64,000 nucleotides of DNA from Halodesulfurarchaeum sp. (GTDB lineage Archaea > Halobacteriota > Halobacteria > Halobacteriales > Halobacteriaceae). The stretch covers positions 896,001-960,000 of the forward strand of contig JAXHNL010000002.1 of NCBI GenBank assembly GCA_034520565.1, given 5' to 3'. Positions 49,601 to 54,218 of this stretch are shown here, one piece after another (within the stretch, counting starts at the first letter, position 1; each line of letters opens with the position of its first letter). The notes beneath the pieces were generated by a model. That model was given only the letters and a program-made list of their open reading frames with translations. It ran no database searches and was not told the origin of the DNA. A program made the translations under genes and the position numbers.

Positions 49601-51387
49601 AGGTGATCGGCCCCCAGTGCGAACCGCGCGTTGTTGCCACCGCTTGGCACCATCGGGTACACGTCCGCCACGGGATCGACGTGGAAGTCGATCACCGAGG
49701 GGCCGTCGTAGGCGAGTGCCTCGTCGATCGCGTCCGGCACCTCGTCATAGCCCATCACTCGCAGCCCCTGGGCCCCATAGGCCTCCGCCAGCGTCGCGAA
49801 GTCCGGGCCCCAGTCCCACTTGCTCTCGTAGCGCCGTTCGTCGTAGAAGGCGTCCTGCCACTGCCGGATCATCCCGACGTAGCTGTTGTTCAGGATGGCG
49901 ACGGTGATGTCGAGTTCCTCTCGCACCGCCGGCGCGATCGCCTGGCTGGTCATCAGGAAGGAACCGTCGCCCTCGAAGGCGATGACCTGCTTCTCGGGGG
50001 CGGCCAGTTTGGCCCCCACTGCAGCAGGAGCGCCATAGCCCATCGTTCCCAGCCCGTTCGAGGAGACCCAGGTCCGGGGCTCCGTGTAGGTCCAGTACTG
50101 GGCGGCCCACATCTGGTGTTGCCCGACGCCGGTGGTGACGATCGCGTCGTCGGCTGCGGCTTCGTTCATCGCTTCGACCACGAACTGCGGTTTCAGCGGC
50201 TGGTCCTGTGGCGTCTCGTAGCCCATCGGATACTCGGCTTTCCACGATTGAGTGCGGTCCCGCCACGCATCGGCCGGCGGTTCGGTCGGCATGGCCCCGT
50301 GTAACTGCTCGAGAACCGCCCCGGCGTCGCCGATGAGCGGGTACTCGGCGTGGATGTTCTTCGAAATCTCGGCCGGATCGATATCGACGTGGATGACTTC
50401 TGCTCCGGGTGCGAACGTCTCGATGCCGCCGGTCAACCGGTCGTCGAAGCGGGTGCCCACACCCAGCAGCACGTCGCAATGGCTCAACGCCATGTTGGCG
50501 TAGCCAGTCCCGTGCATGCCGCCCATCTCCATCGCGAGTGCGTGGTCCTCCGGGAAGGAGCCCAGGCCCGGCATGGTCGTGACGACCGGGATGCCGTACT
50601 CCATGGCGAATTCCCGGAGTTCCTCGCTCGCCTCGCCCTTGATCACGCCACCGCCGGAGAGGATGAGCGGTCGCTCGGCGTTCGCGAGTGCCTCGGCGGC
50701 CGCAGCAACCGTCTCGGAGTCGGCCTCTGGGCCCGGCACCTGATACGATTCGGGCGTGGTCGGCATTGACGGCTCGACGTCGGTTTCGCCCTGTGTCACG
50801 TTCTTGGGGAGATCCACCAGCGTCGGCCCCTGCCGTCCCTCCTTGGCCAGCGCCATGGCGGTTCCGACGTCGTCGCCGACGGAGTCGGGATTCGTGGCAA
50901 AGATGTTGGCCTTGGTGATCGGGGCAGTGATGCCCATCGTGTTCGTCTCCTGGAAGGCGTCGTTACCGACCATCTCCTGGGCGACCTGGCCGGTCAGCGA
51001 GACGACCGGGTCCGAATCCAGGTTGGCGTCGGCGATCCCCGTGACCAGGTTCGTCGCGCCCGGTCCCGAGGTGGTGATCGTTACCCCGGGATCGCCCGAG
51101 ACGATCCCGTAGGCGTCGGCCGCGTGGGACGCACCCTGTTCGTGGGCCATCGAGACGTGGTGGATGTCCGAATCGTGGAGGGCGTCGTAAACCGGCATGA
51201 TCGCCCCGCCCTGCACGCCGAAGGTTATCTCGACGTCGGCTTTCTCGAGGGCCGTGACGACCGAGTGGGCGCCGGTCGTCTGTTCCTCGTCTGCAGTCGT
51301 TTCACTCGTTTCACCTGTTTCGGCCGGCGAGTCCGCTGACTCCGCCGGCGGGTCGGTCGGTTCCGGTTTCGGTTGGGGTTTGCTCAT
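49597..51387 (-). CDS. ilvB: Acetolactate synthase large subunit
   Basis: [32 protein letters not shown] motif GDGSF..NN. Confidence 0.96.
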
Positions 51388-51499
51388 TGGTTTCCGTGGG
51401 CGTGATCGGTCAGTTGCGAATCGATACCCGCTGTCCCGTTCGGATGGACCCTGCTCGGGGCAATATCGGCCTGCCGAACGAGACGATCTGGAGAAGGTG

Positions 51500-51580
51500 T
51501 TACTGGGGGCCCGGGGCCCCTACGATCGCGATGCTGGCCGCACATGCCACGGAAATCGACTGCTGGCGAACGTGGGCCAT
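51500..51580 (-). promoter_or_regulatory. Putative ilvB leader peptide ORF (MAHVRQQSISVACAASIAIVGAPGPQ) with overlapping GC hairpin
   Basis: ATG about 28-33 nt downstream of an ATAAAT TATA-like box; 6 Ile/Val codons; GGGGC-N5-GCCCC stem at 51506-51520. Confidence 0.5.
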
Positions 51581-51624
51581 TGTATCCCCATAGTGGGAAA
51601 CGAGTCGATTTATGCGTTCCGGTC

Positions 51625-51768
51625 GGTCCGGATCGTGGGTCCGCGTTAGGTCCGGATCGTGGGTCCGCGTTAGGTCCGGATCGTGGGTCCGCGTTAGGTC
51701 CGGATCGTGGGTCCGCGTTAGATTCGGATCGTGGCTCCACGTTAGGCGCGGACCGCAGTCTCGCGTTG
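51625..51768. repeat. 24-bp tandem repeat (4 perfect and 2 degenerate copies)
   Basis: GGTCCGGATCGTGGGTCCGCGTTA at 51625, 51649, 51673 and 51697; variants at 51721 and 51745. Confidence 0.95.
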
Positions 51769-51820
51769 GACCGTGGTCCTGCGTGTATTGGCGGGCTTGC
51801 GGGCCCGTTCCGCCGGTGGC

Positions 51821-53041
51821 TCATGCCTTGACCTCCGTCGAAGCGGCGGCTCGATCGACGCCGACGGCGGCCGCAAAGCGGTGGAGATCCTCGAGCGTGA
51901 TCGTGTGTTTCTCCGCGGCCCGGTTTTTGACCCGCTCGGTGATCTCCCCGACTTCCTCCTCGGTCGGGGCGTAGCCCGCCTCTTCGAGGTGTTCGCGGAC
52001 CGCGTTCTTGCCGGTGTGCTTGCCCAGGACGATCGCTCGCTGGGCACCGACCATTTCGGGGGTCATGATCCCCGGTTCGAAGGTGTCGGCGTTCTCGATC
52101 ACGCCGGCCGCGTGGATGCCGCTCTCGTGGGAGAAGGCGTTCTCCCCGACGATCGACTTGTTCGGCGGGATCGGCACGCCCGACTTCTCCTCGATGATCG
52201 CCGCGATCTCTGAGATTCGGGTCGTGTCGATGCCGGTGTCCACCCCGTAGATCGACTCCGCGGCCATGACGACCTCCTCGTAGGCGGCGTTGCCGGCCCG
52301 CTCGCCGATGCCGTTGACCGAGACCTGGGCCTGGTCGGCCCCGGCTTCGATGCCGGCGATGGCGTTCGCGGTCGCCATCCCGAAGTCGTCGTGCGTGTGC
52401 ACGTCGATCCGGGCGTCGGTGTGTTGGCCGACGAAGCCGATCAGGTCCGCGAACCGCGAGGGACTCGCGACCCCGGTGGTGTCCGGGATGTTGACCCAAT
52501 CGACGTCGACCTCGTCGACGGCCTCGAGGACGTCGGCCAGGTACTCCCGATCGGTACGCGTGGCGTCCATCGGGGAGAACATGACCTCGGCGTCGCTCGC
52601 CTTGGCCTGTTCGACGGCCGCGACCGAGCGCTCTTTTACCTCCTCGCGGTTGGAGTGCATGGAGTCCTCGATCTGGACGTCGCTGGTGCTCGCGAAGACG
52701 TGGATCATGTCCACGCCCGAGTCGATGGCGGCCTGCACGTCGGACTCGACCACCCGGGCGAGGCCCGCGACCGTCGTCTCCGTAAACTGCGTGATCTCCT
52801 GGATGGCCTCGAACTCCGCGTCGCTGTTGGCCGGGAACCCCGCCTCGATGACGTGGGTCCCCATCTCGTCCAGTACCGTGGCTATCTCTCGCTTGTCCGC
52901 CCTTGAAAAGGAGGTGCGCGGGGTCTGTTCGCCGTCACGTAGGGTCGTATCGAAGATCCGGACCGAGTCGAACTCGCTACGTGTAGCTAACGTGCCCTGG
53001 AAGAACTCGACCGCCCGAGCTTGCGCCGAGCGACTCCTCAC
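51821..53041 (-). CDS. leuA: LeuA family 2-isopropylmalate/citramalate synthase, short form without the C-terminal regulatory domain; start codon unresolved
   Basis: IFDTTLRDGEQ, HTHDDFGMA, NGIGERAGNA and HESGIH motifs. The only canonical in-frame start upstream of the catalytic motif is GTG 53041. Confidence 0.9.
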   Translation of the reverse strand: MRSRSAQARAVEFFQGTLATRSEFDSVRIFDTTLRDGEQTPRTSFSRADKREIATVLDEMGTHVIEAGFPANSDAEFEAIQEITQFTETTVAGLARVVESDVQAAIDSGVDMIHVFASTSDVQIEDSMHSNREEVKERSVAAVEQAKASDAEVMFSPMDATRTDREYLADVLEAVDEVDVDWVNIPDTTGVASPSRFADLIGFVGQHTDARIDVHTHDDFGMATANAIAGIEAGADQAQVSVNGIGERAGNAAYEEVVMAAESIYGVDTGIDTTRISEIAAIIEEKSGVPIPPNKSIVGENAFSHESGIHAAGVIENADTFEPGIMTPEMVGAQRAIVLGKHTGKNAVREHLEEAGYAPTEEEVGEITERVKNRAAEKHTITLEDLHRFAAAVGVDRAAASTEVKA

Positions 53042-53051
53042 TTCGTGTCAT
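52977..53051 (-). promoter_or_regulatory. Putative leaderless uORF (MTRSEESLGASSGGRVLPGHVSYT) overlapping the leuA 5' end out of frame
   Basis: ATG 53051 lies 25-30 nt downstream of TTATCA, which is preceded by a purine-rich BRE-like stretch. Confidence 0.5.
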
Positions 53052-53297
53052 CAAGTACCTCGAACGTCTTGCCGTTGATAAGTCTTCCCTTCGTCGTCGG
53101 TTTCGGTGGTCGGTTGCTCGGGTTTGCGTTTGCGTCCGGTGTAACGGTGCGGCGTGTTCCAGACGGTTCGAGTCATGACACTCCCGGTTCCCGCTGGGGT
53201 CAGGCCCACGATCATTTTCTCCTCCGTGTGGACATTTTCCTCCGGGCGAGGAAGGGTACATTTTTCTCAGGGAGAAGCAAACGTCGCGTCGGAACCG

Positions 53298-54218
53298 ATG
53301 GATGAGGAGGCGTTGATTGACATCGGCCTGTTTCTCGCCTACGCCGTGCTCGGAGCGTCCTCCTTCGTCGGGGCGAAGGCCGGATTACCGTATTTCCCGC
53401 CACTCTTGTTCGGTGCACTCAGGCTCGACCTGGGTGCCGCGTTGCTCGTCGGCTACGTGTATGCGACCCAGTCCTACTGGACACCCAGGACCCGAACGGA
53501 CGTCGTTTCCACGCTGATTACCGGCGTTTTTACCGTCGGCTTGGCGATTCCGTTGTTGTATCTTGGCCAACAGTACGTCACCAGCGGCGTCGGGTCGGTC
53601 GTGTACAGCTTCACTCCCATTTTGACGGGCGTGGCTGCAATCGGACTGTTACCCGGCGTGAAATTCGGTTTCACCGACGCAATCGGCTTTGTTTTCGGAC
53701 TGGTTGGGGTAGCGGTCGTCGCCGGTGTCGACCCGGGGAAATTGGTCACCAGTGACGTGCGCGGGGTCGCACTTATCTTCGGAAGTGCCTTCGTTTTCGC
53801 ACTCGGGAACGTGGTCGTCCAGCGCATTCGGCCGTCGTTACCGAGCCTCACGCTCACCGCCTGGGGGCTGGTCCTCGCCGCGCTCACCAGTCACGCGATG
53901 AGTCTCGCGACAGGTGAATCACTCACAGCAATCCAGTGGACGACACAGGCGTGGCTCGCCCTCATGGTCACGGGCGTTTTTGCGAGTGCGCTTTACTACG
54001 CCATCCACTTCGAGCTGGTGAGTCACATCGGGTCGACGCGGACGAATCTCGTGTACTACCTGATGCCGATCTCGGCGACGATCGCTGGATGGCTGCTGCT
54101 TGCAGAGCAGATCACACTGCCGACGATCACCGGTTTCGGATTGATCTTCGTCGGGTTTGTCTCACTAGAATACCAGTCGTTGCGCGCGGCGGTCCGCCGG
54201 GAATCGGCCGCTGACTGA
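53298..54218 (+). CDS. EamA/DMT family transporter
   Basis: About 10 TM segments; FPPLLFGALRL and YLMPISATIAGWLLLAEQIT motifs. Confidence 0.88.
   Translation: MDEEALIDIGLFLAYAVLGASSFVGAKAGLPYFPPLLFGALRLDLGAALLVGYVYATQSYWTPRTRTDVVSTLITGVFTVGLAIPLLYLGQQYVTSGVGSVVYSFTPILTGVAAIGLLPGVKFGFTDAIGFVFGLVGVAVVAGVDPGKLVTSDVRGVALIFGSAFVFALGNVVVQRIRPSLPSLTLTAWGLVLAALTSHAMSLATGESLTAIQWTTQAWLALMVTGVFASALYYAIHFELVSHIGSTRTNLVYYLMPISATIAGWLLLAEQITLPTITGFGLIFVGFVSLEYQSLRAAVRRESAAD

Follow-up and report, generated by a model that had tools for sequence, protein, structure and literature searches.

A putative programmed +1 frameshift ahead of haloarchaeal leuA, with a leucine codon as candidate sensor

The leuA gene on the minus strand of a 64,000-nucleotide stretch of Halodesulfurarchaeum sp. 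contig JAXHNL010000002.1 (this whole stretch is called the window below) codes for a 2-isopropylmalate synthase, and the ATG at the head of its presumed transcript, at 53051, is out of frame with it. This ATG opens a 24-codon open reading frame (ORF), MTRSEESLGASSGGRVLPGHVSYT, in what we call the zero frame (f2), and the LeuA frame (f0) is +1 to it. Comparison of this locus with its counterparts in other archaea suggests that a programmed +1 ribosomal frameshift is very probably required for leuA expression. The place where the frame has to change was narrowed to 7 nucleotides (nt), it lies beside a conserved hairpin, and the codon next to the slip codon matches the pathway, being Leu in leuA and Ile in a citramalate-synthase-type paralogue. 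The best explanation overall would be a slip of the tRNA in the peptidyl (P) site of the ribosome while a leucine codon waits in the aminoacyl (A) site, which we regard as probable; that the frameshift senses the pathway amino acid through this "hungry" A-site codon is, in our judgment, likely to about the same degree.

Reading frames ahead of leuA

Orthologous 5' regions were collected from 30 relatives and 80 named genomes, which after removal of 10 duplicates left 100 distinct loci, and from a second set of 43 further distinct loci, mostly of Haloferacaceae and including 15 Haloferax species. The zero-frame ATG was present in all 98 loci that have at least 100 nt of upstream sequence, 39–66 nt before the GTT of the shift site with a spacing that always changes in steps of three, and again in all 43 loci of the second set. 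Between 30 and 66 nt upstream of this GTT, the 98 loci hold 129 ATG triplets in the zero frame, 3 in the LeuA frame and 2 in the third frame (f1), and the conservation of the out-of-frame ATG is well beyond chance expectation. An AT-rich 8-mer begins 32–37 nt ahead of the ATG in 88 of the 98 loci, a spacing that fits a leaderless or nearly leaderless mRNA. In the window, the position of the TATA-like element would likewise have transcription begin at ATG 53051 or no more than a few bases from it. Haloarchaeal transcripts have been reported to be mostly leaderless (PMC3986360).

The LeuA frame was scored for starts in 97 loci. There was no ATG, GTG or TTG anywhere in 46 of them and none after the zero-frame ATG in 75, and the starts of the other 22 were scattered over nine positions. 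Adding the second set, in which 41 of 43 loci had no in-frame start after the ATG, gives 116 of 140 distinct haloarchaeal sequences, among them isolates with complete genomes. GTG 53041, the rival start in the window, corresponds to CTG in three other genomes of its genus (L004, L006, L007), and in four loci (L099, L057, L015, L070) a stop in the LeuA frame lies just 18–30 nt before TTCTTC with no start after it. Because in-frame starts are mostly missing or scattered, an ordinary in-frame start does not appear to be the general route to LeuA. An internal ATG start would lose the catalytic motif, since the first in-frame Met lies downstream of it. One start-bearing upstream ORF that overlaps a functional +1-frame ORF without a start of its own, as found in these 116 loci, is a mark of a +1 recoding site. 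The original prediction, whose statements about the minus-strand sequence were all correct (ATG, GTG, upstream ORF, TATA-like element, GTT-CTT-C, short-form LeuA), had anticipated both the conserved ATG and the lack of a conserved in-frame start.

Is it possible that no frameshift takes place? Initiation of LeuA would then be in frame, from GTG 53041 in the window and from other, or non-canonical, codons in other loci; the ORF from the ATG would be a separate regulatory leader, and the LeuA start would be modulated by translation of this leader or by a stall at its Leu codon. The LeuA-frame peptide of this gene would be AVEFFQGTLATR, or the N-terminus would lie at the GTG codon. Bacteria classically use short leader ORFs that carry regulatory codons, and ilvB next door appears to have such a leader; the GTG in the window and the in-frame starts after the ATG in 24 of the 140 loci are also in keeping with this alternative, and an in-frame CTG was listed as one option by Pfeiffer and Dyall-Smith (PMC8305020). 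The 14 public protein records inspected, from 48 matches, are all annotated in this way, from a start in the LeuA frame and with no shift modelled. The annotated positions are scattered, however (MRSRS.., MQVRG.., MPLIP.., MTTWT..), and the 116 loci without ATG, GTG or TTG on the presumed mRNA, together with the loss of the GTG within the genus and the late position of the first in-frame Met, make the alternative improbable. In the four loci with a nearby stop, only codons of the CCC CGG CGG ATC GAG type would be left to initiate on. Initiation at an internal codon that lacks a Shine-Dalgarno sequence and is only 10 nt away from a leaderless 5' end would be weak. Among the inspected records, P0030 and P0031 of Halalkalicoccus paucihalophilus describe the same gene with starts 11 residues apart; the longer one has ..LITTWTPP.. 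where the other has MTTWTPP.., so the latter must begin at a non-canonical codon, an example of how disordered the annotation of these orthologues is.

A one-base assembly error, or decay into a pseudogene, would also separate the two frames. The assembly is of the metagenome type and 81% complete, and some orthologues have been flagged as pseudogenes (PMC8305020). We compared window positions 52800–53250 with contigs from four public runs; the RNA runs found contained at most 0.13 of the sampled words. The X1 contig has zero differences, but X1 may be the source sample and is therefore not independent. Gapless coverage of the site comes from contigs of another study (X5 record 28, 52842–53101; X3 record 15, 52803–53045; X3 record 17, 52847–53015), and indels are listed for just one X3 contig of a relative, in which those at 52981 and 52985 compensate each other. 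The indel at 53000–53051 that the original prediction had named as a possible refutation was not seen. With the same frame arrangement in all 140 distinct haloarchaeal sequences, complete isolate genomes included, and clear purifying selection on the protein (65–94% identity, no internal stops), an artefact or decay is effectively refuted.

The protein of the window has HMGL-like and HCS_D2 domains (PF00682 at 1e-79, PF22617 at 2.9e-24), and the domain search found no LeuA_dimer (PF08502), the leucine-binding allosteric domain, which makes it a short form. It does not reach the curated LeuA cut-offs (NF002085, 450.9 bits versus 517; TIGR02090, 407.7 versus 484.75) because the C-terminal domain is missing. 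Its role as LeuA rests on its place as the first gene of the operon leuA-ilvB-ilvN-ilvC-leuC-leuD-leuB and on the assignment of HVO_1510 in PMC8305020. If GTTC is taken as one four-base step (= V), a single open product of 409 residues results, MTRSEESLGASSGGRVFQGTL... The coordinates of the features are given in Table 1.

Table 1. Features at the 5' end of leuA and their positions in the window
Feature	Position	Strand	Basis
TATA-like/B-recognition element (BRE) promoter element GAAGGGAAGACTTATCAA	53075..53092	minus	sequence; 35 nt before the out-of-frame ATG
ATG start of the zero frame (f2), out of frame with leuA	53049..53051	minus	sequence and conservation
TGA stop of the LeuA frame, overlapping the ATG and shutting the LeuA frame upstream	53048..53050	minus	sequence
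GTG, rival start; sole canonical start in the LeuA frame before the catalytic motif	53039..53041	minus	sequence
GC-rich hairpin with GCAA loop (53024-53021), proposed 5' stimulator	53009..53036	minus	folding of the window and relatives
CGA (Arg), proposed exit (E)-site codon; CGA kept, rarely CGG	53007..53009	minus	alignment
Shift site G-TTC-TTC; zero frame reads GTT (Val, proposed P site), CTT (Leu, proposed A site), C	53000..53006	minus	alignment
TAG stop of the zero-frame ORF; end for unshifted ribosomes after 24 codons	52977..52979	minus	sequence
LeuA catalytic motif IFDTTLRDGEQ	52925..52957	minus	sequence; DTTLRDGEQ part at 52951-52925
Remaining leuA coding sequence in the +1 frame, through the stop; short-form 2-isopropylmalate synthase	51821..53002	minus	ORF and domain search

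The shift site and its upstream hairpin

In an alignment of 99 sequences, TTCT is invariant (99/99) and the block TCGA-G-TTCTTC is nearly so, with the G of column 43 in 97, the T of column 48 in 98 and the C of column 49 in 97 sequences. GTT-CTT was read in all 43 loci of the second set, and the zero-frame codon pair in Halobacteria is GUU-CUU in 139 of 142 cases, CUU-CUU in 2 and GUU-CUC in 1; two Marine Group IV metagenome-assembled genomes (MAGs) deviate from the core (CGACTTCTTC). Upstream of the core, CGA is replaced by CGG in L012, L013 and L020, which is silent in the zero frame (Arg) and turns Glu into Gly in the LeuA frame, and the codon preceding CGA (GAT, GAC, GAA, GAG or GGT) gives Asp, Glu or Gly in the zero frame versus Ile, Val, Thr, Asn or Ser in the LeuA frame. 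Downstream, the Gly codon after the site varies among GGC, GGT, GGG and GGA, which is silent in the LeuA frame and gives His, Tyr, Asp or Asn in the zero frame. Because the zero frame is constrained at CGA and the LeuA frame at the Gly codon, the switch of frame is placed within GTT-CTT-C(N).

Such conservation of shift-prone nucleotides, synonymous positions included, is a second mark of +1 recoding. The original prediction had looked for invariance at the nucleotide level, and this held for TTCT and, nearly, for GTTCTTC. It did not extend into the downstream CAGGGCAC, where the Gly codon changes synonymously in the LeuA frame, indicating that the shift lies before CAGGGCAC. By codon usage of the window genome, the zero-frame codons at the site are minor ones (CGA 20%, GTT 13%, CTT 10%, CCA 13%) and the overlapping codons of the LeuA frame are major ones (GAG 63%, TTC 82%, CAG 79%). 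The tRNAs of this genome include Leu GAG, CAG, UAG, CAA and UAA, Val GAC, CAC and UAC, Arg UCG and Phe GAA.

In all 78 distinct sequences a GC-rich hairpin is formed by the 30 nt ahead of the site, with a mean folding free energy (dG) of -14.46 kcal/mol and a mean z of -2.3 relative to dinucleotide shuffles (42 of 78 below -2); the hairpin of the window has dG -14.5 kcal/mol and z -2.0. A dG of -10 or lower was found for 77 of the 78 hairpins versus 12% of 1485 same-length segments inside the same genes (mean -6.76). The inner stem takes 48 different forms among the 78 sequences, for example CGTCGG/CCGGCG, CCTCTGAC/GTCAGGGG and CCCCGG/CCGGGG, a covariation that is descriptive and was read from per-sequence folds; RNAalifold on the ungapped 99-sequence alignment gave no consensus pairs, the stems lying in at least three registers. 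In 42 of 78 sequences the 3' end of the stem is 2 nt before GTT, at the E-site codon. An engineered GC-rich hairpin adjoining the E site raises +1 shifting if decoding in the A site is slow, on 70S as well as on 80S ribosomes (PMC6321510), and by analogy we propose that the haloarchaeal hairpin would favour the forward slip.

Other roles for this segment were considered. A Shine-Dalgarno-like pairing of the G-rich 3' arm with the 3' end of 16S rRNA (GGAUCACCUCCU) was rejected, as half of the sequences have a C in the middle of the G-run. Between 53051 and 52925 there is no run of at least four T and no second hairpin, that is, neither terminator nor antiterminator of a leader-peptide attenuator. 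A search of Rfam with 51300–53400 returned no match at E values up to 1.

Related cassettes in other archaea and in a paralogue

We sampled 120 other genomes of the same phylum and obtained 5' regions from 44 loci in 22 families. The best homologues outside Halobacteria are long-form LeuA proteins of 500–550 residues. The layout of the cassette, a zero-frame NUU followed by a Leu codon, was found in 30 of the 44 loci, in 15 families; the first codon is UUU in 18, CUU in 10 and GUU in 2 of them, and the second is UUA in 14, UUG in 2, CUU in 10 and CUA in 4. The short zero-frame ORFs again begin with ATG (e.g. MNITEQRDRFLRH, MEMRDRFLQ.., MARKDFAGDRLLHR, MSVETSAWDRFLPS). A stop in the LeuA frame often stands immediately before GGG-ATC, and 12 of the 30 cassettes have no start in the LeuA frame before the catalytic motif; long-form genes with the stop in this place also seem to need a +1 shift. 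Short ORFs of the ..RDRFL.. type precede long-form LeuA in L113-L119, L160, L167, L224 and others (Methanosarcinales and many other families).

The cassette is missing in 13 loci of six families (f20, f24, f26, f29, f32, f33), which have a plain in-frame ATG 3–20 codons before the motif and no N-terminal extension. Family f27 has starts in frame, and L150 has a further cassette along with a paralogue that is ambiguous. A scan of genome contigs with the pattern AGGGATCGYTTTTTAC yielded, among 120 matches, 20 leuA cassettes and 100 chance matches in unrelated bacteria; carriers include Methanohalophilus euhalobius, Methanococcoides sp. FTZ1, Methanolobus and Methanosarcinales MAGs. A match in Methanocorpusculum was rejected as a cassette, since it is not adjacent to leuA.

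Long forms that carry the cassette, such as the methanogen LeuA of L113, keep the LeuA_dimer domain. The device therefore appears to accompany feedback inhibition, and the idea in the original prediction that recoding replaces allosteric feedback found no support. The leucine of the zero frame is maintained through five of the six Leu codons. Where the LeuA frame of the outgroup has Phe-Phe, the first Phe is TTC, which gives CUU in the zero frame, in 11 of 11 loci from 7 families; TTT would give Phe in the zero frame.

The genome of the window has a second, long paralogue with LeuA_dimer at C1:99285-100817, outside the window, that has its own out-of-frame ATG and short ORF, MTTDRFIAGAN (C1:99281-99316), with ATT where leuA has its Leu codon. 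The paralogue cassette was present in 50 of 51 distinct rows, with an Ile codon at the homologous place (ATT in 40, ATC in 10). It comes in two types: M-T-x-D-R-F-I, with (CGN/CAC)-TTT-ATY, in 31 rows, and ..A-A-G-R-E-I.., with (CGN/TGY)-GAA-ATY, in 19 rows, the latter with a covarying GNRA-loop hairpin of its own upstream at a 6-nt spacing. In the first type the Leu of the LeuA-type frame is TTA in 31 of 31 rows, a constancy that suggests constraint at the nucleotide level; TTA makes up only 2% of Leu codons in the window genome. The two kinds of cassette meet in family f34, where two paralogues of one genome read ..W-D-R-F-L.. (LeuA) and ..W-D-R-F-I... The amino-acid-responsive recoding put forward in the original prediction gains from this difference of Leu and Ile codons between the two paralogues, as far as comparative sequence data can speak to it.

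What is the product of the paralogue? A transposon insertion in HVO_0644 of Haloferax volcanii leads to isoleucine auxotrophy, which its authors took to support a citramalate synthase (PMC4300041), and the long paralogue of the window genome is probably the counterpart of HVO_0644. For this protein the NCBIfam models do not separate LeuA from CimA, and a PDB sequence search gave generic family members only. A family search had Haloferax volcanii and Methanosarcina acetivorans among its matches, though with no loci given for them. A targeted scan of the window genome for GAY-CGN-(T/C/G)TT cassettes found the long paralogue only. A wider scan for short ATG ORFs over start-less long +1 ORFs was set aside as uninformative, since its 343 matches are mostly GC-rich shadow ORFs. 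Elsewhere in this genome (C2:869532-869786, outside the window), the allosteric part of the LeuA model, positions 408-496, is weakly matched (E 7.7e-4) inside an open frame of 154 residues; this could be a free-standing regulatory-domain remnant or protein.

The methanogen sites also bear on a correction at the RNA level, in which slippage of the polymerase or editing adds or removes a base near the site and ribosomes read a normal ORF. Their versions contain runs of five or six T (CGTTTTTTAC), tracts of a kind prone to polymerase slippage. Runs of this length are short for efficient slippage, however, and haloarchaeal GTTCTTC has no homopolymer run; as neither the conserved Leu/Ile identity nor the hairpin would be explained, we consider this reading very improbable.

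Proposed mechanism and its relation to known systems

In the mechanism that we propose, transcription from the TATA-like box would give a leaderless or nearly leaderless mRNA, and ribosomes would initiate at ATG 53051 and read 16 codons, MTRSEESLGASSGGRV. There they would pause, tRNA-Val being paired with GUU in the P site while the E site contains CGA and the A site the leucine codon CUU. Should Leu-tRNA be accepted, the frame would be kept and translation would terminate eight codons on; should it be slow to arrive, the P-site tRNA-Val could slip by one base, from GUU to UUC, and enter the LeuA frame (...GGRV-FQGTL...). The GC-rich hairpin ending beside the E-site codon would promote this forward slip, and scarcity of leucine would thus lead to more LeuA. 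The Leu codon is placed in the A site because only a slip of NUU onto UUY fits every version of the site (UUU-UUA, CUU-UUA, UUU-CUA), so that for the haloarchaeal site this placement is suggested by homology. Re-pairing onto UUY is perfect from UUU (to UUU or UUC) and involves two of three positions from GUU to UUC; CUU to UUU is the slip of release factor 2 (RF2).

A different tRNA may slip. With tRNA-Leu(GAG) on CUU in the P site, re-pairing with UUC while the minor codon CCA is awaited would give ...RVL-QGTL...; leucine would then not be sensed by an empty A site, and the shift could be constitutive or responsive to something else. The RF2 and Ty1 sites both slip on CUU-N, tRNA-Leu(GAG) is encoded in the window genome, pairing from CUU to UUC (G.U, A-U, G-C) is better than from GUU to UUC, and the next zero-frame codon is always a minor NNA (CCA, CGA, CAA or GCA; CCA is 13% of Pro codons). 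This re-pairing, favoured in the original prediction, nevertheless seems unlikely: it is unworkable in the cassettes of other classes with UUA, UUG or CUA (UUA to UAC etc.), fails on the AUU or AUC of the paralogue, pairs badly in L051 (CUC-G), and leaves the match between codon identity and pathway product without a reason. The methanogen pairs UUU-UUA, CUU-UUA and UUU-CUA point to the slip from GUU to UUC instead. If tRNA-Leu instead moved by -2, from CUY to UUC, the haloarchaeal variants would be accounted for but the UUA/UUG sites would not, and this reading was ranked below the +1 model.

A number of observations weigh against the P-site slip of tRNA-Val and its use as a leucine sensor. 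The re-pairing from GUU to UUC has a mismatch in the first position. CUU (10% of Leu codons) is read by wobble by tRNA-Leu(GAG), which also reads CUC, the commonest Leu codon (55%), and would presumably be slow only with leucine itself short. The 3' arm of the hairpin would be expected to lie within the ribosome once GUU has reached the P site. Two haloarchaeal sequences deviate from the core, L051 with GTTCTCG (a MAG) and L082 with GTTCTTG (the complete genome of Haloferacaceae archaeon DSL9), although both (L051:362-419, L082:1464-1521) still have NUU and a Leu codon in the zero frame. The leucine is also partly forced, as Phe followed by a LeuA-frame codon starting with U makes 6 of the 8 possible overlapping codons Leu.

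The need for a shift is likewise not uniform. In the window itself the ATG is followed 10 nt later by an in-frame GTG, some in-frame start exists in 22 of 97 and 2 of 43 relatives, and for genes of this kind, taken one by one, ordinary initiation could apply; moreover, related genomes are non-independent samples. Some in-frame start is also present in 18 of the 30 outgroup cassettes. Three of the outgroup loci (L114, L130, L143) have an in-frame ATG 5–6 codons before RIFDTT, like the families without a cassette, and their short ORF might be a leader that controls an ordinary start instead of forcing a frameshift. Among the CimA-type paralogues, 40 of 50 rows have an in-frame GTG or TTG, and the need for a shift is less strict there because only 10 of 50 are without any start in that frame.

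If the leuA and paralogue cassettes are taken together, they may form a family of translational frame switches for branched-chain amino acid synthesis in the phylum of Halobacteria and methanogens, with NUU (or GAA) in the P site, an A-site codon that names the end product (Leu in the case of LeuA, Ile in that of citramalate synthase), and a leader of ilvB as a third arm; we hold the chances for and against such a family to be evenly balanced. The device would then predate the split of LeuA and CimA or have been copied between the paralogues, and the conserved ilvB leader peptide would be the one that ends in Ile-Val-Gly-Ala.

Bacterial RF2 (prfB) is made by an autoregulatory +1 slip of the P-site tRNA, with a stop codon in the A site and a duplex of the mRNA with 16S rRNA just 5' of the site. 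The proposed leuA device resembles it in the NUU-type P-site slip, the product-dependent A-site codon, the duplex 5' of the site and the early termination of unshifted ribosomes. The A-site codon is a sense codon (Leu), however, and not a stop, the duplex is a hairpin of the mRNA and not a pairing with 16S rRNA, the site is 15 codons from a leaderless 5' end, the host is an archaeon, and the sensed entity would be an aminoacyl-tRNA and not a protein factor. In Ty elements, as in the hungry-codon shifting of Gallant (reviewed in Atkins et al. 2016, PMC5009743), a slow A-site sense codon drives the +1 shift, by slip of the P-site tRNA in Ty1 and by out-of-frame binding of the incoming tRNA in Ty3. 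In Ty, a constitutively rare tRNA sets a fixed ratio, whereas in leuA the slow codon names the end product of the pathway. In attenuation of the bacterial leu, ilv, thr, his and trp operons, a short 5' ORF carries codons of the operon's own amino acid and the speed of the ribosome is the sensor. The leuA ORF is alike in carrying a codon of the end product, but the output of attenuation is terminator versus antiterminator RNA and that of leuA would be the reading frame.

The hairpins of Huang, Cho and Chang (2018; PMC6321510) are similarly stable, GC-rich and beside the E-site codon with a slow A site, and a test construct had CGC as the E-site codon. Their system was artificial (CUUUGA, in E. 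coli and yeast lysates), and the haloarchaeal hairpin would be, by analogy, a natural counterpart. In the review of Atkins et al. (2016; PMC5009743), the archaeal cases are magnesium chelatase, a Sulfolobus fucosidase and tail genes of haloarchaeal viruses, which were inferred, as here, largely from conserved overlapping ORFs. The cellular ones are -1 shifts on A-rich heptamers; the tail gene of virus HSTV-2 is very likely +1, and within the part of the review covered there is no cellular +1 gene, no case in amino acid biosynthesis and none proposed to sense an amino acid. The natural role of hungry-codon or starvation-induced shifting is termed unclear there, and the word "isopropylmalate" was not found in its first 300,000 characters.

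A suspicion of slippage has already been published for Haloferax. Pfeiffer and Dyall-Smith (2021, Genes 12:963; PMC8305020) reported major start-codon problems in the ortholog set of HVO_1510 (leuA2 of Haloferax volcanii), using 16 curated genomes, raised slippage as an unresolved alternative, and noted ArcPP peptides upstream of Met-93. The ortholog set is the same as ours; their main text gives no shift site, hairpin, frame-specific substitutions, methanogen homologues or paralogue cassette with an Ile codon, though Text S1 and Figure S1 may add to it. Literature searches for frameshifting with isopropylmalate synthase, citramalate synthase or leucine biosynthesis in archaea, haloarchaea and methanogens gave nothing beyond this paper, and a search for "HVO_1510" gave only the paper and its preprint version. 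As far as these searches reach, the location of the shift within 7 nt, the conserved 5' hairpin, the long-form cassette of methanogens, the A-site assignment of the Leu codon and the Ile-codon version of the paralogue are new.

Little is known about the regulation of amino acid pathways in archaea with leaderless mRNAs. If the proposed frameshift is real, it would resolve the start-codon problem that underlies scattered starts or pseudogene calls for leuA in many archaeal genomes, and all 14 records inspected would start wrongly. It would be a cellular archaeal +1 programmed frameshift in a central biosynthetic gene, a natural case of an end-product sense codon acting as a sensor, the first of natural hungry-codon frameshifting serving as a metabolite sensor, and an archaeal counterpart of bacterial attenuation. 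The swap of Leu and Ile codons between the paralogues is experimentally accessible in Haloferax volcanii, which is genetically tractable, and the cassette, at less than 60 nt, could be a portable amino-acid-responsive switch.

Downstream of leuA, a 26-codon ORF, MAHVRQQSISVACAASIAIVGAPGPQ, lies at window positions 51500-51580 on the minus strand, about 25 nt past a TATA-like GCATAAAT and about 110 nt before the ATG of ilvB. Short ORFs ending in ..I/V-I/V-V-G-A are similarly placed in 19 of 30 related ilvB loci, by a crude filter, and the ORF is probably an Ile/Val-sensing leader peptide. Between the leuA stop and the promoter of this leader there are about five tandem copies of a 24-nt unit, CGGACCTAACGCGGACCCACGATC (51630-51760, minus strand).

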